DNA of 32,000 nucleotides from a virus (IMGVR_UViG_3300045988_175865:60001-92000); one strand, 5' to 3'; shown: positions 3,873 through 30,169, numbered from the stretch's first letter. Numbers and translations are program-made. Notes: generated by a model not told the origin, from the letters alone.

Positions 3873-4219
3873 TATTCCCAAGGTAAAATTTTCTGAGTTA
3901 TTCTTTTATAGTTATTTAATATTCCTAAGATGTTTGCTCGACCTACAGGATTTGCAGATTGACTTGCAAACTGTGGAAGGACATATCCTTCATCTATACA
4001 TTTATCTACAATATACTTGGCTATATCGTATCCAGATTTTTCCTCTCCTAAATCATGATCGAGACAAATTGCATAAGGTCATTCTTTTTCAAGGAAGTCA
4101 ATAGCTTCTTGATAAGACTGAGCCCATACAACTTTACAATTTCTGCCAATTGGACTAAAATTCATCCAATCATCTTCCATTGGATTACGAGCATCATCTA
4201 TCCAAAAAAGTGTTTTCAT
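3872..4219 (-). CDS. receiver-like domain protein (cyclic-phosphate-processing receiver type), 115 aa, one in-frame TGA
   Basis: Manual code-4 translation MKTLFWIDDARNP...EKE(TGA=W)PYAICLDHDLGEEKSGYDIAKYIV...; TGA at 4079-4081; missed by the standard-code ORF track. Confidence 0.7.
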
Positions 4220-4221
4220 AA

Positions 4222-4467
4222 TCATCTAATTCTTAAATGAGAAAGTAAATTAAAAACTATTAATATAATACAAGCCATAGTTGGAATAAAGTTTAAAGGA
4301 GTCCAAATGAGTATTATAAAGACAAAGCTACTAATATATTTATCCTCAGTATAGTATAAATACATATCTCCTAGAGTAGTTCCTTCTTTAGATTTTATCC
4401 TCCAATAAACGTAGAGAATAATATGATTAATAATTATACATACAAACCAGCAATATACAAATTCCAT
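4222..4467 (-). CDS. small membrane protein, paralog family B
   Basis: ORF track 81 aa; C-terminal half aligns with 5995..6402; apparent stop is TGA, giving 8 more codons under code 4. Confidence 0.6.
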   Translation of the reverse strand: MEFVYCWFVCIIINHIILYVYWRIKSKEGTTLGDMYLYYTEDKYISSFVFIILIWTPLNFIPTMACIILIVFNLLSHLRIR

Positions 4468-10699: not shown

Positions 10700-10717
10700 A
10701 AGTTAAAAAGATTTTTG

Positions 10718-11138
10718 TGTGCCTGATGAGAATTGAACTCATGTCCATTCAACTATTAATAATAATTTTATTTACATGCTAGGTTATTTTATTCTCCTAT
10801 TCCGAAAAATAACAAAACGTATCAGATAGTTTTTATCTTATCTCCTACAACTTATCTGAAATAACTCGGTTCTATAATAGTAGTTAGTAATGATTAACTT
10901 ACATCATCTGCATTAATCTATACAGAAAATCTTTGTCTATTATTTCTCCAGACTTGGATAGCTTAAGCTGCAAAAGCTACTTGAGCACGCATAGGAGTTG
11001 CAAGAGGCATAACCTTGTTAGCCATCTTACGTACAGTGTTCTTAGCGTTTATTTTTTGGTCCAGTTGTTAAAGAAGTTATACCAGCTCCTGCATGAATTG
11101 TTATCAACTATCTTGAATGTCAAAAACCTGGCAGGCCC
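10718..11138 (-). ncRNA. ssrA: tmRNA-like RNA (ssrA-like), 421 nt, tag ANKVMPLATPMRAQVAFAA
   Basis: 5' GGGCCUG-CC-AGGUUUUUGAC-AUUCAA and 3' UUGAAU-GGAC-AUGAG-UUCAAUU-CUCAU-CAGGCAC-A reproduce the tmRNA tRNA-like domain layout; internal frame 11022..10963 ends GCU UUU GCA GCU UAA (E. coli: GCU UUA GCA GCU UAA). Confidence 0.75.
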
Positions 11139-11455: not shown

Positions 11456-12046
11456 TTATCCTTTAAAGTATAATAATGTTGGATTATTCTTATGCACATC
11501 AATATTCGGATATCGTTTTGCAAAAGTTGACATATCAAAAGGAGTTGTAATTAAATGAAAACCATTTTTAGTAGGAATCAAAGCCTTAAACTTTGAACCA
11601 ATAGGTTGACATTCTCGTTCAATAAACAGTAAGATATTATTTACCGCACGATTATCTGTAGGTCCATCAATATCAACAACCCATGTTTTATCGTCTTTAT
11701 TACATGTTGATCCACAAGCATGATCATAACAACGATAAACTTCTTCCATCTGATCATATCGTATTCGTTCAGCAAGATTCTCTAAACAAACTAACGCTAC
11801 ATCTTTATAGCTTCGCTTGTTTAAATGAATATAAGCACGTGCTTTAAATATAGAACACATTTGCTTAATTTCCTTTTTCTTGCCTTCGAAATATTCAAGA
11901 GAACGTATACAATAGGAACGAACTAAACGGTTATTTACTCCTATATCGGGATTATCCTTTGATCTTTGTATAATCTGAAGATAATAAAAATCATCTTTAG
12001 ATTCAAATTTCAAAAGACTTTTAATTAAGTCAAAATTATCTACCAT
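11456..12046 (-). CDS. hypothetical protein, 196 aa, with weak primase-polymerase (AEP)-like motifs
   Basis: ORF track; VVDIDG (DxD-like) then KNGFHLIT (sGxGxH-like) about 35 aa later; motif resemblance only. Confidence 0.55.
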   Translation of the reverse strand: MVDNFDLIKSLLKFESKDDFYYLQIIQRSKDNPDIGVNNRLVRSYCIRSLEYFEGKKKEIKQMCSIFKARAYIHLNKRSYKDVALVCLENLAERIRYDQMEEVYRCYDHACGSTCNKDDKTWVVDIDGPTDNRAVNNILLFIERECQPIGSKFKALIPTKNGFHLITTPFDMSTFAKRYPNIDVHKNNPTLLYFKG

Positions 12047-12125
12047 TTTCTTTAATAAGTAAATTTAATTTGCATATACAAAATATTTTTATTATATTTG
12101 ATTTAATTATTAAATCAAATAAATC

Positions 12126-12503
12126 ATGAATATATTAATAAAAACATGTACGGTTTGTAAAGAATCAAAAGCCTTAGATGAGTTTCCAAAGCATCCACAG
12201 CATAAAGATGGATACAATAGTGTTTGTAAAAAATGTATGCAAAAAAGCAATAAAAAATGTAGATCAAATAAAAAGATTCATTTTATAAAGAAAATGGGAG
12301 GAGAATGTACAAATTGTAAAATAAAATTGACTGAAAATAATTGACCAATATTTGATTTTCATCATATAGATCCTTCCCAAAAAGAAGTTTCTTGATCAAC
12401 ATTAAGAAATTGAAGTAATGATAAAATTGAAAAAGAATTAAACAAATGCACTTTACTATGTGCTAATTGTCATAGACTTTTACACGCAAAGACTAAAGAT
12501 TAA
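12126..12503 (+). CDS. HNH endonuclease, 125 aa, three in-frame TGA codons
   Basis: N-terminal CxxC...CxxC, then under code 4 ENN(W)PIFDFHHIDP...VS(W)STLRN(W)SNDKIEKELNKCTLLCANCHRLLH; TGA at 12342, 12393 and 12411; only plus-strand gene in the left arm. Confidence 0.85.
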
Positions 12504-12544
12504 CTTTAGTCTTTTATTTTTATCTATTACTATTATTCTAGTCA

Positions 12545-12586
12545 ATAAAAAATAGAGCCTACACCTCCGATCAAGGAGATGTAGGC
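12545..12586 (-). terminator. intrinsic terminator (usable in both directions)
   Basis: GCCTACA-CCTCC-GATCAA-GGAG-A-TGTAGGC hairpin; on the minus sense it is followed by TCTATTTTTTATT. Confidence 0.65.
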
Positions 12587-12708
12587 AATGTTTATCGTCT
12601 TTTAAGAGCTTCATAATTTTTATATGGGCCCCTCCTCTTAGTAAAGGTTTTTCCTTTACCGTGTTAGAGGAAACTATAGTGTTCTACTATAGAGACTACA
12701 CCTTTGAT

Positions 12709-12888
12709 TTAGCAGGTAGGCTTTTCTGCTTTGTAATTAGGTAAGTATAGAGCATTATGCCTTACTCTACGGTAAACAGTTCTATACGAAAGTTCTCCTG
12801 TCTTTTTATCAAAAACAGGGTTGCCTTCTTCATCTACTTTAACTTCTTTAAAGGGCATTGTAATAGCCTTCATTTTAGGATGTGCCAT
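12709..12888 (-). CDS. small protein, 59 aa
   Basis: Manual translation MAHPKMKAITMPFKEVKVDEEGNPVFDKKTGELSYRTVYRRVRHNALYLPNYKAEKPTC; one codon below the ORF-track cutoff; 9 nt downstream of the SPFH gene stop. Confidence 0.55.
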   Translation of the reverse strand: MAHPKMKAITMPFKEVKVDEEGNPVFDKKTGELSYRTVYRRVRHNALYLPNYKAEKPTC

Positions 12889-12897
12889 CTGTGTTAT

Positions 12898-14091
12898 TTA
12901 ATTATTTTTACCTTGTTTTTTAGCAATATCAAGGAGCATATTCAGTCCTACAGCATCCATAGGATTAGCAGATGCTCCTTCTTTACCTCCAATAATCATT
13001 ACTTCAGGAACCCAACGAACATTTGAGTTTGCTAATGCCTGAGCTACACCAATTGTGGTTTCTTTATCAATTGTTGCTCTTTGCAATGGGTCCAATCCAG
13101 CAAGTACTTTAGCTCGTGCTGCTGCAGCTTCTGCCATGCCCTGAGCTTCAATACGTTTTGCATCTTCCTTTGCCTTTAAAGCAGAAAGACGAGCTACTTC
13201 ATATTCCTGTTCAGCCTTAGTAACCTCTACAGCCTTAATTTTCTCCTGTTCCCACTTAGCCTTCATAGCAAGTGCCTTACCCTCCTCTTCAGCACGAATT
13301 GCCTCTTGAGCAGCAGCAGCTGACTTCGCACGACTAGTTTGAATAAGCATATTTGCTTCCTGTTGCTGAGCAATCTGCCTATTTACTTTATCAGAATATG
13401 CAATCTTTGATACAGCTACCTGACCAATCTCTAGTCCATAATAAGCAAATGGGGAGGATTCACTACGCTTGTAACCTCCTGCTGCTAATGAGTCAGGAAT
13501 TAGTGTAGCTACATTAATAACTTTCTTTTCTCCAGTAATTGCATCAAGTACTTCGCTACGCTTGATTGCAGTTTTGTAGACACCATTATTTAACTGATCA
13601 GTAATATATTCAATCAAGTCATTCTTCTTCTCTGCATACGATTCAAAAGCAGACATCAGAGGACCTGAAGCATAAATTACCTTAGTAACAGTCGGACGAA
13701 CAAGATCATTCATTAGACGATCCATACCATTATAATCAGTCTGAATACGAGCGAGGTATTTAGGGTCAGTAGGAAGTTTTACACGAAGTGATCCATAAAT
13801 CATACCATCTGAAGCATCATTGAAGATTACAGGAATAGGTTTTCCCTGCTGATCGCCAGCCTCAGAGTCAGATCCGAACCACAACTGTTGAGTTTTATAG
13901 TAAGTAGTGGTTTTGCCCCACCACTGCCAGTGAAAACCAGGACTAGTCCAGTATTCCATGTTACCAGTAAACGGATACTGATTGACTACAATCGTCTCAT
14001 TCTTTACATCTTCCCCGATTTTACCCAGAGAAACAACACAGAAAATAGCAAATACTACTACAAGAGCAGCAACAATTTTTTTGAAATTCAT
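12898..14091 (-). CDS. SPFH/band-7 (flotillin/YqiK-like) membrane protein
   Basis: ORF track 397 aa; N-terminal TM helix, globular domain, then a long Ala/Glu/Lys-rich coiled region typical of flotillin-like SPFH proteins. Confidence 0.7.
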   Translation of the reverse strand: MNFKKIVAALVVVFAIFCVVSLGKIGEDVKNETIVVNQYPFTGNMEYWTSPGFHWQWWGKTTTYYKTQQLWFGSDSEAGDQQGKPIPVIFNDASDGMIYGSLRVKLPTDPKYLARIQTDYNGMDRLMNDLVRPTVTKVIYASGPLMSAFESYAEKKNDLIEYITDQLNNGVYKTAIKRSEVLDAITGEKKVINVATLIPDSLAAGGYKRSESSPFAYYGLEIGQVAVSKIAYSDKVNRQIAQQQEANMLIQTSRAKSAAAAQEAIRAEEEGKALAMKAKWEQEKIKAVEVTKAEQEYEVARLSALKAKEDAKRIEAQGMAEAAAARAKVLAGLDPLQRATIDKETTIGVAQALANSNVRWVPEVMIIGGKEGASANPMDAVGLNMLLDIAKKQGKNN

Positions 14092-14551: not shown

Positions 14552-14774
14552 AACTAAGAATTAGCATATTAACTATTTAAGTTAAGATAAGGATTAGATT
14601 TTTATTACAAAAATATATACCAGCTGTGTAACACAATTTTTGCCTGATTGGTACTAGCATTTACCATACACTTCCTTAACCAATATCAGAAACTATATGT
14701 ACAGGTATATAAACAATAAATAGCTTCTGTAAGTGTACAACCTATTGCACAGATACTTTCACTATCTTATTATT

Positions 14775-14862
14775 GTGATTGGATAGGATTCAAACCTAAT
14801 GTTTCCCTATTGTACAACAAGGCGAGTTTCATCACATTCTCCTCTCAATCAACCCCCAATCT
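14775..14862 (-). other. degenerate tRNA-like element (T arm and partial acceptor only)
   Basis: TTAGG-TTTGAAT-CCTAT T-arm-like hairpin; 6 of 7 acceptor pairs (AGATTGG/CCAATCA); no convincing D or anticodon arm. Confidence 0.3.
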
Positions 14863-15203
14863 TATTGAAAACAATAAGACGCCCTTGTCTTGTCTGGGAG
14901 ACTTTCATAAGGGTACTTTTTAAATAAAAAGAGGTAATCCCATAAGTATTATTCTACCTCCGCCTCATCTATAAAATCATAGATTATCAGCAGCCTCTGC
15001 CAAGGCATCCCTGTTTTTCTATGAACTGGCAGATTCATAAATTATCAGGATAAACAGATTATTAAATTTCTTTAATATTTTCGTTTTTATATTTCTTCTG
15101 AGTAGCAATCTTTATTATTCCATCCTCGTTTACTAGTTTCTCTTTTCATTCTTAGCTATAACTTTATTAGTATATTACTAATATAATGCAGAAAGTAGTG
15201 TCA

Positions 15204-15497
15204 TTACTTCTCTAATCCAAATTCATTAATAAAATCAATATTCCTCTTACATAAACTTTTTACAGTAGCAACTTTATGAGTTACATTTCCCGCGGTAACC
15301 TCAGAAGCTATCTCTGCAATATGCGTAAGATTATTGTATGCCATGATCTCACCATATTGTTTCTTTATTTTATCTGTATAATTAAATGCTAATGCTTTAA
15401 TTAGAGCAACATTATGAGAGTAATTTTCAGTAGTTACTCTATCACATTTATTATTTATACGTGTAAACCATAATATAACATCCTCTTTTGTTATCAT
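15204..15497 (-). CDS. hypothetical protein, 97 aa
   Basis: ORF track. Confidence 0.6.
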   Translation of the reverse strand: MITKEDVILWFTRINNKCDRVTTENYSHNVALIKALAFNYTDKIKKQYGEIMAYNNLTHIAEIASEVTAGNVTHKVATVKSLCKRNIDFINEFGLEK

Positions 15498-15523
15498 AGT
15501 GTTATGTGCTTATTGTTAGGTTT

Positions 15524-15781
15524 CTAAGAATGAATTTGTTTCCCTTTATATATAGACCAGCCTTTATCTTCTGCTATTCTAACACAACGAGACTCCATTT
15601 GGCTATGTATTGTTTGAATGTTTTGATTTAAGGAGTACGTTATAGTATCTTCTTTACCATTAATAAGAATTTTGCCATTTTCATAGTCAAAAAGAATCTT
15701 ATCTTTAAAGATTTCTATAACTAACAAATAAAGGGTTTCCGCATAGCAAGTTGTATAAATAGGATGAATAGCAAAGTACAT
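15524..15781 (-). CDS. hypothetical protein, 85 aa
   Basis: ORF track. Confidence 0.6.
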   Translation of the reverse strand: MYFAIHPIYTTCYAETLYLLVIEIFKDKILFDYENGKILINGKEDTITYSLNQNIQTIHSQMESRCVRIAEDKGWSIYKGKQIHS

Positions 15782-15801
15782 ATTGGGTTTGAATCTAATT
15801 A

Positions 15802-15843
15802 TAAAAAAATACTCCTCTGTAACGCATGCCCTTGCAGGAGTAT
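15802..15843 (-). terminator. strong intrinsic terminator ending non-coding block B
   Basis: Minus sense ATACTCCT-GCAAGGGCATGCGTTACAG-AGGAGTAT followed by TTTTTTTAT, about 20 nt before the next ATG. Confidence 0.75.
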
Positions 15844-16432
15844 CAATTCACTATAATAATACTGGCTCCCTATAATAGTTTCTGAACTCAAGACTACAGA
15901 ATCTCAAAAGTAAAGTTATTCAATCAGAAACTTCTTGTTGTACCTATCGTATCTAACACATTCACAAATCTGGGGATATTGTTTATGCTGACTAAATACT
16001 CCTGGCCTGGACTCAAGTTTTTCTACTCCTTCCCTCTAAACTTATAACGAGTGAACTCCCTTAGTAGACAAAGGACTCATTGACAGTTTAACTACTACTA
16101 TCAACCTGCAGTTTAACTCCCCGAATTTACGGAGTAATCCATGCAACTGTACATAGAACTTGCTCTTTTGTTACACAACACAAGTTATTGTGAAAGATTT
16201 ACGACTTCCTTAAACGATTTACCTTAGAACATTGCAGAACTTATTCCTTTAACATATGATTATTTCTACTAATACGCATAATAATCTAGAATAAAAACCT
16301 CTGTTAAAGTTAAGATACACTAGGTTAATATTATCCTCTAATCCCCGCTATTAGAGTATTCTTTTTTTAGTTTAACTCCCCTTCTACTATTAGGGTTTAT
16401 CTACAATGCTTAAGTTTATATTAGAATTCTTT

Positions 16433-16540
16433 TTATCTGCGTTTGAATTCTGTAATATCCTCTTCATCATAGCCAATTAAGGCTTCAAGAGGAACATCAT
16501 CAACCATCTCGTCAATAATAGATGTATCTTCAATTTCCAT
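16433..16540 (-). CDS. small acidic ORF, 35 aa, immediately after a G9 tract
   Basis: MEIEDTSIIDEMVDDVPLEALIGYDEEDITEFKRR; the frame stays open upstream through a TM-like segment but has no canonical start there. Confidence 0.3.
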   Translation of the reverse strand: MEIEDTSIIDEMVDDVPLEALIGYDEEDITEFKRR

Positions 16541-16696
16541 ACCCCCCCCCTCTTTAAGTTTATAGGCTACTATAAATAGTATAGTTGAGACTAAGATAAT
16601 TAATATAAAAAATGATACTTTTTTAGTTTTGCTTGAGGTAAGTATCTAGATGAAACGTTATAATCTAATCAGTCATTTCCTACTCATCTATTTTTA

Positions 16697-23948: not shown

Positions 23949-24339
23949 TTATTTACAACTATGATAAACATGAAAAGGTCCACAATGAATTTTACCATTT
24001 ACAGAAGTTTCTCTTCTATAAATAATTTGAAAAACATTTGGATGATCCTTTATATAGTCTTCGACTTGCTGAACTGAAGAGAATGTTGCCAATATTTCCC
24101 ATTTGCCTTTGCTCCATGTTGACGTACATGAACTCACGCTATCCCGCAAAATCTTTATATTACTATAAAGCTTTATCCTTAAAAGACCGCTAGGTAGATC
24201 GACGCCTAATAAGTATTCACCTTCCTTTGCTCACTTTCTTAAGGACGTTAGGTTCCTAATTATACTCTTAAAAGTGGAAGAGTTTATTTAAAAAAAGATA
24301 AACGAGCTTATTTAGTTCATAATGATAGTATACTTCCAT
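23949..24339 (-). CDS. hypothetical protein needing a +1 shift (or an indel correction) near 24287-24296
   Basis: ORF track 23949..24149 has no ATG; its frame stays open 46 codons upstream (one TGA). The ATG at 24339 opens a 23-codon frame that is +1 relative to it across T7-AAA. Confidence 0.45.
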
Positions 24340-24453
24340 TATTTATCAGAATCTAGTATAAAGGGTCTACTGATTCTATATTTTGCTCTAATTATGGTAT
24401 ACCCTTTACTTATACTATAATGTTCATATCTTTGTATATAAGAAATGTGTAGT

Positions 24454-24489
24454 CAAAAATAGAGGAGGTACTATACTTCACTCCTCTAT
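24454..24489 (-). terminator. intrinsic terminator ending non-coding block E
   Basis: Minus sense ATAGAGGAG-TGAAGTATAGTAC-CTCCTCTAT followed by TTTTTGAC. Confidence 0.7.
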
Positions 24490-24904
24490 CTTACGATTTC
24501 CAGTTTTCGGCTCTTATTTATACTCGTTTAAGCCTACTTACATTAGATAAAACTAATCATAGTAAATCCAGACATTAATTTCTGGTAATCGTCAGGCACG
24601 ATTTCGAGTTTTAAAAACAAATATACCTACTATCATGATATTCCTCAGTTACATAATCCTATCATGAGGTGCCTCCACGATAAGTGACTAACTAAAGAGA
24701 ACTGAGAGTCTTTAAGTTAGTATTATTTCTCCTCCTCGGTATATTTGAAAATACACAACCATACTTAGTGCTATGAGCTTCCCAAAAACTACTCGCGCGT
24801 TTTCATTTAAGAGATTCTAAACTAAGTGATCCTACTCTATGGTAGATTAATTATGGCTGCTACTTAATAGCAGAATTTAACCCTTAGGTTTTATGTGTAT
24901 CTTT

Positions 24905-25189: not shown

Positions 25190-25443
25190 TCTCTTCTGTT
25201 GGTATAAATCAATAAAATCTTATCAAACGCTTACTCAAACTTTAAATTATTAATTTATAAATTATTAATTAAAGAGTAACTCGCTGAGTGTGAGAAGTTT
25301 ATTGATTATAATATGTGAAAATTGTTTCTGAATTTTTTAAAAAATAAAAGAATAGAGTGTGGTTTAGAGATTGATAATCAAGCACTTAGCATCATTTATA
25401 AAAATATTTAATAATATATATTAAAAATATTTATAAATAATAT

Positions 25444-25473
25444 TAAAAAAGAGACTGCCTCTGCTCAGTCTCT
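25444..25473 (-). terminator. intrinsic terminator
   Basis: Minus sense AGAGACTG-AGCAGAGG-CAGTCTCT followed by TTTTTTAATA. Confidence 0.7.
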
Positions 25474-25588
25474 ATCAATCATAGACAAAGGCACTTAATG
25501 TACAGAGGGAGGGCTCTGCTTCACAGCAGTGCAAATTCAATTATTAACTATTAACCCTTGTTAATTCTGTTTCAGAACAGTATTTAGT

Positions 25589-25618
25589 GTTTGTAGGGAA
25601 GTTTATTTTCCTACAAAC
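25589..25618. terminator. 9-bp hairpin downstream of 25626..25790
   Basis: GTTTGTAGG-GAAGTTTATTTTC-CCTACAAAC; no clear U tract. Confidence 0.4.
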
Positions 25619-25625
25619 AGAGTAG

Positions 25626-25790
25626 TTATTCAAGGAATGATGCTCCAGCAGCGATAGCATAAGATATTACAGTACTTACTACAGGTGAATATCCTAATAC
25701 TTCTGCACCACCGAATGCAAAAGCAGCGAGGAGAGTACCCCAGAAGATAGTACTAAATAGTCTTTCAGAAAAAGAACCTTTATTTTCCAT
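25626..25790 (-). CDS. small membrane protein, 54 aa
   Basis: Manual translation MENKGSFSERLFSTIFWGTLLAAFAFGGAEVLGYSPVVSTVISYAIAAGASFLE. Confidence 0.5.
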   Translation of the reverse strand: MENKGSFSERLFSTIFWGTLLAAFAFGGAEVLGYSPVVSTVISYAIAAGASFLE

Positions 25791-25976
25791 TTAGTTGAAT
25801 AACTTTTTGGATATAGAATTCGTTGTTTTTAGTTGCTTTGATTACGTAGAAAGCGAGTTTATTGTGTATTCAGCCTCTTCAGTTGTATACTACATAATCG
25901 CCGCAATTGGTAGTTAAGATGTTAAAAGGGAGTTTTCACTCCCCTTTAACAGTTAACTGGCCGTTACGAGCAGGTT

Positions 25977-29207: not shown

Positions 29208-29319
29208 GGATATATGAGTTAAGGTAAATAGATTGCAAAAAAAAACAACAGCCTAACTTATAAACCATCTACGCATCGGTAGGCCACACTGGTATAGTAC
29301 TGTTGTTAAATTAAAGATC

Positions 29320-29436
29320 CTATTTTTGAAACCAAGAATCAACGTAACTGTCCAATTGCTCTTCAGCAATATCTTCTTGATAACATATCTCATTCAGCTC
29401 CTCAGGAGTATAGTCAGTAATATCAAGGTTAATCAT
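29320..29436 (-). CDS. small acidic protein, 38 aa
   Basis: MINLDITDYTPEELNEICYQEDIAEEQLDSYVDSWFQK. Confidence 0.35.
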   Translation of the reverse strand: MINLDITDYTPEELNEICYQEDIAEEQLDSYVDSWFQK

Positions 29437-29506
29437 GACTCCACGTTTTTTGAAATTATCCTACAGATATGTTTAAAGCTTTGATTACTAGAGAATAAAG
29501 TTATCC

Positions 29507-29656
29507 CTACTTAGTAGGGATAATTGTAAGTGCTCCAGTAATCAGCAGCATGGTAGCTGCATATGAAAATGCTTCGTGATGAGAAACTGAGTAGAACAGT
29601 AAACCAATAGCTATTATGGCAGCAACAGCTATTAGAACATTAACGGTTCGTTTCAT
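29507..29656 (-). CDS. small membrane protein, 49 aa
   Basis: MKRTVNVLIAVAAIIAIGLLFYSVSHHEAFSYAATMLLITGALTIIPTK; its stop lies inside an 8-bp hairpin. Confidence 0.45.
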   Translation of the reverse strand: MKRTVNVLIAVAAIIAIGLLFYSVSHHEAFSYAATMLLITGALTIIPTK

Positions 29657-29971
29657 AGTAAACAGTGTTAAGGTTATGAAAAGGTTATATGCTTTGGTAA
29701 ATTTAATTCAATTTTTTATGGGAATTTTTGTCTTAAAATAAATCGTTTTCCCATTGGTGGTGGGAGGGGGCTAAAATACTATGTAACCGTATTTGTGCAT
29801 TATATACCCACATTTTATTTAGAGAATTGAAAATTTTTAGGAACCTATGAATTAGGTTCCATTTCGTTTAAAGGAGGGGGGGGGCTTTTAGTGCTCAGCC
29901 TTAAATCTAGTTCCATCCGAGCGCCTCCGCGAAGCGAGGATGCATATAGTATATAGATAGATATCAAATTA

Positions 29972-30064
29972 ACATCACTTATGTATTAACCTAACATCAG
30001 TATGTATCGTGTCAATGTATCAATCTGACATCGGTATGTATCAATCTGACATCACATGCTGTAT
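29972..30064. repeat. iteron array, core ACATCRNNTATGTAT, including an 18-nt perfect repeat
   Basis: Core copies at 29972, 29994, 30028 and 30049; ATGTATCAATCTGACATC at 30015-30032 and 30036-30053 (21-bp period). Confidence 0.8.
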
Positions 30065-30138
30065 TACAATATTAATAATTATTTATACAAATTATATAAA
30101 ATAATATACAAATATTTTGTATATTGTAATATTATTCA

Positions 30139-30146
30139 TATTTTTG
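30139..30146 (+). promoter_or_regulatory. Bacteroidota-type -7 box TATTTTTG
   Basis: Matches TAnnTTTG, 24 nt upstream of ATG 30170. Confidence 0.4.
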
Positions 30147-30169
30147 TACTATAATTAAAATAACTAATT

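Follow-up and report, generated by a model that had tools for sequence, protein, structure and literature searches.

Large, intricately folded RNAs are rare in bacteria and phages. The closest described systems to the locus considered here are ROOL and GOLLD, which are large, associated with phages or prophages, and located close to tRNA genes. ROOL has an average length of about 581 nt and possesses multistem junctions and three pseudoknots, with a function that is unknown, whereas GOLLD, often found in prophages beside tRNAs, is longer and structurally more complicated (PMC5737381). GOLLD, ROOL, and OLE form homo-oligomeric RNA-only complexes, as cryo-EM showed for ROOL (PMC12286853).

A block at positions 15782-16432 (minus strand) was analysed in a window of viral DNA, 32,000 nt in length (IMGVR_UViG_3300045988_175865:60001-92000). 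Comparison with related phages makes it very likely that a structured RNA gene exists at the block, and the best explanation, which we hold with good confidence, is a minus-strand gene for a structured non-coding RNA of ~620 nt that is composed of two modules and would act in trans. The RNA resembles ROOL (RF03087) in its size (~620 nt versus about 581), its complex fold, and its location in phage DNA near tRNAs. At least 17 helices and one well-supported pseudoknot are predicted here. The conserved sequences differ from those of ROOL, and the two-module build with a natural short form belongs to this RNA. The ROOL covariance model has no match in the block (E ≤ 10), the window (E ≤ 0.5), or the related loci of clades B-D (E ≤ 1), and ROOL is widespread whereas this RNA is confined to one crAss-like lineage. 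GOLLD (RF01998) is likewise a large ornate RNA, but its covariance model has no match and it has no motifs in common with this RNA. The likeness to GOLLD and ROOL is an analogy of size, complexity, and genomic setting, without homology in sequence or structure. Since no Rfam 15 family matches, the RNA appears to be a new family among the large ornate phage-associated non-coding RNAs, from which it differs in the phages that carry it (the crAss-like phages of Bacteroidota), in its build of two modules, and in having a natural short form. An RNA of this type in crAss-like phages was not found described in full-text literature searches, and the terms "non-coding", "noncoding", and "tmRNA" do not occur in the Crassvirales review or the comparative-genomics paper that were word-searched.

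Genomic Setting of the Block

The window DNA has a G+C content of 32%, and almost every gene lies on the minus strand. The SPFH/band-7 protein encoded at 12898-14091 (minus strand) shows 48% identity to gp91 of Bacteroides phage crAss001, and this similarity, together with phage-like PHROGs matches, indicates that the window is DNA of a crAss-like phage, a group that ranks with the most abundant human-gut viruses. For the ten nearest neighbour proteins of the block, PHROGs matches were uninformative and Pfam matches were not obtained. The related contigs are 100-175 kb in length and originate from human-gut metagenomes, a size that fits the Zeta group of crAss-like phages, the members of which are large, inhabit the human gut, and carry many group I introns (PMC7886860).

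Twelve tRNA genes and one tmRNA gene are present in the window. The tmRNA gene, at 10715-11138 (minus strand) inside the tRNA island, scores 50 bits and encodes the tag peptide AKNTVRKMANKVMPLATPMRAQVAFAA; tmRNA genes were also found in two relatives (L012, 9951-10359; L026, 11563-11921). Two weak Rfam tRNA matches at 23537-23665 and 23801-23905 (minus strand; 33-35 bits), 129 and 105 nt in length and both missed by ARAGORN, may be intron-containing tRNAs or tRNA-like RNAs with large insertions. Six more ORF-free stretches of 0.5-1.4 kb occur at 12047-12897, 17930-18406, 19698-21135, 24150-24904, 25190-25976, and 29208-30169. Reading through TAG or TGA leaves them mostly empty, two gaining a partial ORF only, and an Rfam search of the six gave nothing above threshold, the sole weak match being RAGATH-33 at 20946-21055, which scores 31.7 bits where the gathering score is 120. 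Additional unrecognised RNAs may be present in the region.

A Conserved Non-coding Block

The longest minus-strand ORF with an ATG start in the block spans 13 codons, as the first-pass annotation had observed in calling it ORF-free, and ORFs with TTG or GTG starts reach 22-34 codons. Because stop codons are recoded in some crAss-like phages, a recoded coding gene was also considered and rejected: TAA, TAG, and TGA each occur in all six frames of the block, and reassignment of TAG or TGA yields no ORF of at least 80 aa. Substitutions in the block are distributed equally among the three phases (p = 0.85), without codon periodicity, while the adjacent SPFH gene displays an excess of third-position substitutions (p = 1.5e-26). 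Within the same clade A HSP, the block is 95% identical and its flanks about 86%. These comparisons show that the block is non-coding and conserved beyond its flanks.

Conserved homologues, on the existence of which the first-pass annotation had made its reading depend, were found. Related IMG/VR contigs were reached through the flanking proteins, and the block was then located by profile search of those loci. The homologues comprise three sequence clades and a short form (D): clade A shows at least 95% identity to the window, clade B about 72-74%, and clade C about 60%, with a 5′ part that aligns poorly. All are confined to large (about 100-175 kb) human-gut crAss-like contigs. Rfam gave no match on the block even at E ≤ 10 (gathering and permissive thresholds), and Rfam 15 found only tRNAs, tmRNA, and group I introns elsewhere in the whole window (E ≤ 0.5) and in the loci of clades B, C, and D (E ≤ 1). 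A blastn search of GenBank phages with the block gave no match, a 14-mer scan for distant homologues gave, beyond the known clades, only chance matches, and scanning every other locus for motif clusters yielded nothing. Gapped-motif scans of viral, metagenome, and genome collections returned clades A-D, the other matches lying in unrelated sequence; one of these is a conserved stretch of Flavobacteria that looks protein-coding and is presumably a pyruvate kinase gene. The covariance model R1, built on the central domain, had no match in over 60 further crAss-like SPFH loci, among them that of crAss001, and no paralogue of the RNA occurs elsewhere in the window. The family therefore appears to be real but narrow, restricted to one lineage of large human-gut crAss-like phages.

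Modular Architecture of the Predicted RNA

The coordinates of the predicted RNA and its parts are listed in Table 1. The start of the gene was placed at the first motif common to all clades, AAUAUAAAC, just past the stop of the upstream ORF.

Table 1. Positions in the window of the predicted RNA, its structural elements, and the upstream ORF
Feature	Position	Strand	Elements and remarks
Whole predicted RNA gene, ~620 nt	15803..16422	minus	limits of between-clade alignability; no coding signal; 5′ end predicted
5′ domain, ~230 nt	16190..16422	minus	framework common to clades A, B, C and short form D
P1, 5′ strand	16401..16414	minus	CUUA..AUUGUAG; pairs with 16223-16237
P1, 3′ strand	16223..16237	minus	CUGCAAU..UAAG; covariation with P1 5′ strand
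P2 hairpin	16370..16395	minus	CCCU/AGGG, variable length, then GAGUUAAAC; first repeat copy
P3	16247..16309	minus	CUUUAACA/UGUUAAAG, around variable insert; inverted repeat I3
Invariant segment	16238..16246	minus	GAAUAAGUU, adjoining P1 3′ strand; same in A, B, C, D
Hairpin Ha	16193..16211	minus	AAGGA/UCUUU, conserved loop GUCGUAA; helix 1 of the model
3′ domain, ~390 nt	15803..16192	minus	clades A, B, C only
Hairpin Hb	16174..16192	minus	CACAAUA/UGUUGUG; UACGAUG/UGUCGUA in clade B; helix 2
Hairpin Hc	16138..16157	minus	UCUAUGU/GCAUGGA; loop ACAGUU forms PK1; helix 3
PK1, 3′ strand	16109..16113	minus	AACUG; pairs with Hc loop CAGUU, 16145-16149; helix 4
Hairpin Hd	16116..16135	minus	ACUCCG/CGGGGAGU; second copy of GGGGAGUUAAAC; helix 5
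Hairpin He	16080..16104	minus	UUGAUAG/CUGUCAA, conserved loop GUAGUUAA; helix 6
Hairpin Hf	16058..16074	minus	CCUUUG/UAAGGG; UUCUCA/UGAGGG in clade C; helix 7
Purine-rich invariant segment	16030..16043	minus	AAGUUUAGAGGGAA
Long irregular hairpin Hk	15949..15999	minus	GUAUUUAG..CAU..ACAA / UUGU..AUG..UUAGAUAC; shorter in clade C
Helix Hg	15877..15932	minus	AGUUUCUGA/UCAGAAACU, enclosing invariant UUGAAUAACUUUACUU and hairpin Hh; inverted repeat I5
Hairpin Hh	within 15877..15932	minus	UUGAGA/UCUUGA, invariant loop UUCUGUAG
Terminal hairpin and U-tract	15803..15843	minus	AUACUCCU/AGGAGUAU, near-invariant 19-nt loop GCAAGGGCAUGCGUUACAG, then U7; helix 12
Upstream acidic ORF, 35 codons	16433..16540	minus	syntenic with the RNA in every clade

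The 5′ domain is closed by the long-range helix P1, which covaries in four lineages, from the clade A arms of Table 1 to CCUAAA..AUUAUGG / CUGUAAU..UUUAGG in clade B, CUUAUUUUAUUGGG / CUUAAUAAAAUAAG in clade C, and UUUAAGUAAU / AUUGCUUAAA in form D. As read from the sequences, P2 is closed by CCC/GGG in the three clades and by CCGC/GUGG in D, and its loop varies in length. In P3, most clade B sequences have C-G where clade A has U-A, two C-A intermediates also occur, and one relative (L004) carries a 29-nt deletion within the P3 region.

In nine phages (L018, at 4150-4345, L013, L016, L017, L025, L027, L029, L031, and L037), the flanks of which are 91-98% identical to clade B, a segment of ~240 nt replaces the locus of ~670 nt. 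The resulting short form D (~190 nt) retains the framework of P1, UAAACC, P2, GAAUAAGUU, GUGAAUCGUUU, and Ha with its loop GUCGUAA, and ends at the Ha hairpin CUAGAGU/ACUCUAG directly before U5. Its occurrence in sister phages indicates that the 5′ domain can stand alone as an RNA of ~190 nt, and because the interior of the short form differs from the 5′ domain of clade B, cassette exchange is likelier than simple deletion. From these comparisons, the 3′ domain would be either an add-on or a part lost in the short-form phages, and the 5′ module may be the core with the 3′ module as an accessory.

The short form, in which the 5′ module stands alone with its own hairpin and U5, could also mean that the locus produces two or more RNAs, of ~230 nt from the 5′ part and ~390 nt from the 3′ part, through processing or an internal start, and a covarying helix that links the two domains was not found. 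This reading is nevertheless distinctly improbable, because Ha is not followed by a U-tract in the long forms, no conserved promoter-like element lies between the modules, and the modules are contiguous wherever both occur. A single two-module RNA is therefore preferred.

In the 3′ domain, the loop of Hc and a downstream strand covary from CAGUU/AACUG to CAACA/UGUUG in clade C and, independently, to CAGUA/UACUG in the clade A relative L235, with all cells paired. PK1 is thus a well-supported candidate for an H-type pseudoknot that spans hairpin Hd, to which its loop lengths are suited. The ACTCC/GGAGT stem noted in the first reading corresponds to Hd (16135-16116) and does flank one repeat copy; its outer ACU/AGU pairs are invariant, while the inner stem is CCG/CGG in clades A and B versus CGUU/AACG in C. 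The variants of He include UUGAUAG/CUAUCAA, UCAAUAGA/UCUAUUGA (clade B), and AAUAGG/CCUAUU (clade C), and the inner stem of Hk changes from ACAA/UUGU to GUUA/UAAC or GCUA/UAGU in clade B (helices 8-9). Four complementary variants of Hg were observed (AGUUUCUGA/UCAGAAACU, AUCUCUAA/UUAGAGAU, CUUUCUGA/UCAGAAAG, and AACUCUUUGA/UCAAAGAGUU), and Hh has seven complementary arm variants around its invariant loop. The RNA palindromes GCAUGC, CUGCAG, UGUACA, and GGCC are conserved, but as signs of homo-oligomeric assembly they are no more than suggestive, since ~10 six-base palindromes are expected by chance in 640 nt.

The internal repeats reported earlier are present at their assigned sites: the 13-mer AGTTTAACTCCCC at 16110-16122 and 16369-16381, and CAGTTTAACT and CTTGAGT twice each. 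An exact 12-mer repeat occurs in 4% of mononucleotide shuffles of the block, so the repeat is only modestly unusual. Each copy of GGGGAGUUAAAC supplies a hairpin, P2 or Hd, with its 3′ strand and is followed by UUAAAC.

Compensatory Changes in the Fold

The folding energy of the whole block is ordinary (z = -0.83), and the evidence for structure therefore comes from comparison between phages and not from thermodynamics. Compensatory changes between clades were visible by eye before counting. A 13-helix model of the 3′ domain was scored on an alignment of 27 sequences (20 distinct rows) against a slid control, in which partners were moved by 1-3 columns, and a shuffle control (n = 500), which ignores relatedness where the slid control does not. 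Covariation, another point on which the first-pass annotation had staked its proposal, was positive: 93.7% of cells are paired in the model versus 37-46.5% in the slid controls, the covariation score is 0.263 versus at most 0.10, and 23 pairs are changed on both sides versus 2-5, many of these compensatory changes tracing to few evolutionary events because only three or four lineages are represented; the observed value was reached in 0/500 shuffles for each of the three measures. These figures are conservative because MAFFT misaligns Hg in clade B; when the helix arms of Hg, Hh, He, and the terminal stem were extracted directly, every variant was complementary. In L235, independent double changes occurred in both PK1 and the terminal stem, and these within-clade events lessen the concern that the covariation stems from two or three deep splits. 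Insertions and deletions (the deletions in L004 and L021, a hairpin added in clade C, and the shorter Hk) lie within helix-enclosed regions or add or shorten a hairpin. Most of the at least 17 helices into which the RNA is predicted to fold are shown by the sequence comparison to be backed by compensatory substitutions.

Some pairings outside the model were also considered. RNAalifold, run on the raw MAFFT alignment, proposed a long-range pairing of CUGUCAAU with CUGAUUG, which was rejected because it clashes with the better-supported hairpins He and Hg; the pairing of GUAGUAGUUA with UAACUUUACUU, which clashes with better-supported hairpins as well, was kept as a possible tertiary contact only. 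Alternative pairings of GAGU/ACUC versus CUC/GAG near Hf, of the He loop with UAACUUUACUU, and of GCAGG with the UUCUGUAG loop are uninformative by covariation because the positions involved are invariant.

The alignment holds 179 G-U cells versus 40 A-C cells, and the model is canonical in 93.7% of cells on the minus-strand transcript versus 84.8% on the opposite strand; this excess of G-U over A-C indicates that the folded molecule is the minus-strand transcript. Such strand-specific use of G-U, together with the compensatory changes, is a signature of a single-stranded transcript and makes it very improbable that the block is instead a DNA-level element (an origin, a packaging site, or a protein-binding site) or a young, undiverged spacer without an RNA function. 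The window does contain many other ORF-free stretches, and the G+C content of the block (33%) resembles that of the window, but the genes on either side are less conserved than the block, and the replication-initiator-like gene and the gene-strand switch lie ~10 kb away, at ~26.8 kb.

The 3′ End and the Neighbouring Genes

The block had been described as closing in a textbook intrinsic terminator ~20 nt before the next gene. The hairpin, the U7 tract, and the ~20-nt gap to the ATG at 15781 were borne out; "textbook" is slightly too generous, since the loop is 19 nt in length. The terminal stem consists of 8 bp with three G-C pairs, in which ATACTCCT (15843-15836) pairs with AGGAGTAT (15816-15809), and the T7 tract follows at 15809-15803; the predicted energy of the hairpin is -13.7 kcal/mol (z = -2.9). 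A consensus terminator scan (loop 3-8 nt) of 15000-17500 returned no terminator-like site, and the hairpin was missed because its loop exceeds that range. The stem covaries from ACUCCU to ACCACU in clade B, ACCAUU in clade C, and ACUACU in L235, with 3′ arms that match each time; the variants AUACUCCU, AUACCACU, UACCAUU, and AUACUACU are each found with a complementary 3′ arm. The 3′ end of the block resembles an intrinsic terminator in its stable, G+C-containing stem directly before U7, which is kept in all clades, and differs from one in its nearly invariant loop, which contains an inner mini-stem and the palindrome GCAUGC. This near-invariance suggests that the terminal hairpin probably has a second role besides termination. 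Given the homologues, the covariation, and the terminal stem with its U-tract in every clade, the earlier proposal of a discrete non-coding RNA unit of ~600 nt that ends in a terminator is supported.

The small acidic ORF upstream comprises 28-39 codons across the clades and is separated from the RNA by a spacer of about 10-40 nt; its peptide is conserved in A, B/D, and C, with the core (I/L)(I/V)DE(M/F)(V/L)DD..(L/I)EA, and the ORF and the RNA may share a transcript. Nine consecutive G (minus-strand sense) at 16541-16549, 2 nt upstream of its ATG, could be prone to slippage or assembly error. In several clade A relatives (L236:3207-3260), the stop codon TAA of the ORF is changed to CAA, by which four codons are added into the first bases of the predicted RNA, and the 5′ end of the RNA is therefore probably at or after the TAA of GAAUUCUAA. 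No promoter-like motif common to the clades was detected before the RNA, and the motif TAAYAYAAAC is not enriched in the window.

Downstream of the RNA, two small ORFs, the first of 85 aa, are found in clade A, a 206-aa ORF in clade C, and another non-coding stretch in clades B and D. In clade A, the two small ORFs (15781-15204) separate the RNA from a second ORF-free block of 652 nt (14552-15203, minus strand). A core of ~60 nt in this second block, at about 14990-15056 (..CUGCCAG..GGAUGCCUUGGCAGAGGCUGC..), is kept in clade B and, as a profile match, in the short-form D phages, directly after the RNA; the second block may represent a further small RNA or a hairpin with a regulatory function. 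The T-arm-like sequence GGTTTGAATCC at 14786-14796 (minus strand) within it, called as a tRNA by neither ARAGORN nor Rfam, could be a degenerate or tRNA-like element.

The constant position of the acidic ORF directly before the RNA in all clades, the lack of a common promoter-like motif between them, and the hairpin and U-tract just before the next gene are what would be expected of a cis-acting element, either a structured 3′ UTR of the acidic-ORF mRNA or a leader or attenuator that controls read-through into the downstream gene. A gene-specific cis-regulator is argued against by the downstream gene, which differs among A, B/D, and C, and a riboswitch or cis-regulatory leader was rejected because a constant association with a particular downstream gene is lacking. 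Furthermore, known attenuators come nowhere near this RNA in size and complexity (~620 nt, at least 17 helices, and a pseudoknot). An anti-terminator pairing recognised in clade A (CAGGAGUAU with AUACUCCUG, repeats D2/I1 and I2) was also rejected, since three of its positions no longer pair in clade B, whereas the arms of the terminator covary. A cis-acting element is on these grounds improbable, and the status of a 3′ UTR would be compatible with a trans function in any case.

The relatives carry group I introns (L026, 11906-12133, 75 bits; L012, 2865-3059, 44 bits), and the size of the block is compatible with a degenerate or ORF-less self-splicing intron or another mobile-element remnant. 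The group I model (RF00028), however, has no match on the block (E ≤ 10) or in clades B and C (E ≤ 1). The upstream ORF has its own stop in all clades and the downstream gene varies, so that there are no exons to join, and the 3′ end is a hairpin with a U-tract. The exchange of long and short forms between near-identical genomes is cassette-like, yet it always occurs at one fixed locus, and an intron or mobile-element origin is scarcely probable. In L026, the intron match lies directly beside, or overlaps with, the 3′ end of the tmRNA gene as called (11563-11921).

Proposed Role of the RNA

Based on the preferred reading of a two-module, trans-acting RNA, a possible course of events can be proposed. 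The RNA gene would be read in the same direction as the neighbouring genes, and transcription may begin either close to 16422 or before the small acidic ORF and end at the terminal hairpin and U7, which could protect the 3′ end as well. During infection, the RNA would be produced together with the phage tRNAs and tmRNA, and the folded molecule may act in trans and not as a regulator of one downstream gene, a proposal made because the downstream gene differs between clades. A host or phage component could be bound by it or scaffolded on it, self-assembly being one possible means. By analogy, a structured trans-acting phage RNA of the GOLLD/ROOL type was rated the most likely function, as a tentative assignment. 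It is fairly unlikely that the RNA represents a hitherto unrecognised class of large phage RNAs that are active in themselves, for example as ribozymes, as self-assembling RNA-only complexes like those of ROOL and GOLLD, or by engaging the host translation apparatus; if it did, abundant human-gut crAss-like phages would make use of this class, and the short form would mark the minimal functional core.

A family of ~620 nt with solid covariation, a pseudoknot, and long and short forms represents a defined target for RNA structural biology, with a narrow distribution that limits its generality. The locus is also a sign that tRNAs are not all that the "RNA island" of these phages contains.

A further comparison is offered by Y RNA/YrlA with Ro60, since a TROVE gene occupies the syntenic site upstream of the SPFH gene in crAss001 and is followed by an ORF-free gap of ~900 nt. 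A link of this kind was rejected for the RNA described here: in tblastn, the crAss001 TROVE protein matches only crAss001-like loci, with none in the window or around the RNA in clades A-D, tRNA-like and Y RNA models have no match on the block, and the block has no nucleotide similarity to crAss001, where covariance model R1 also finds nothing. The crAss001 gap itself (MH675552.1, from gp96 TROVE to gp95) contains an unannotated 144-nt tRNA-like element (L007:4919-5062; 46.6 bits with the tRNA model), which is a candidate YrlA-type Y RNA partner of the Ro60-like TROVE protein, and this neighbourhood thus appears to host non-coding RNA genes in another crAss family as well.
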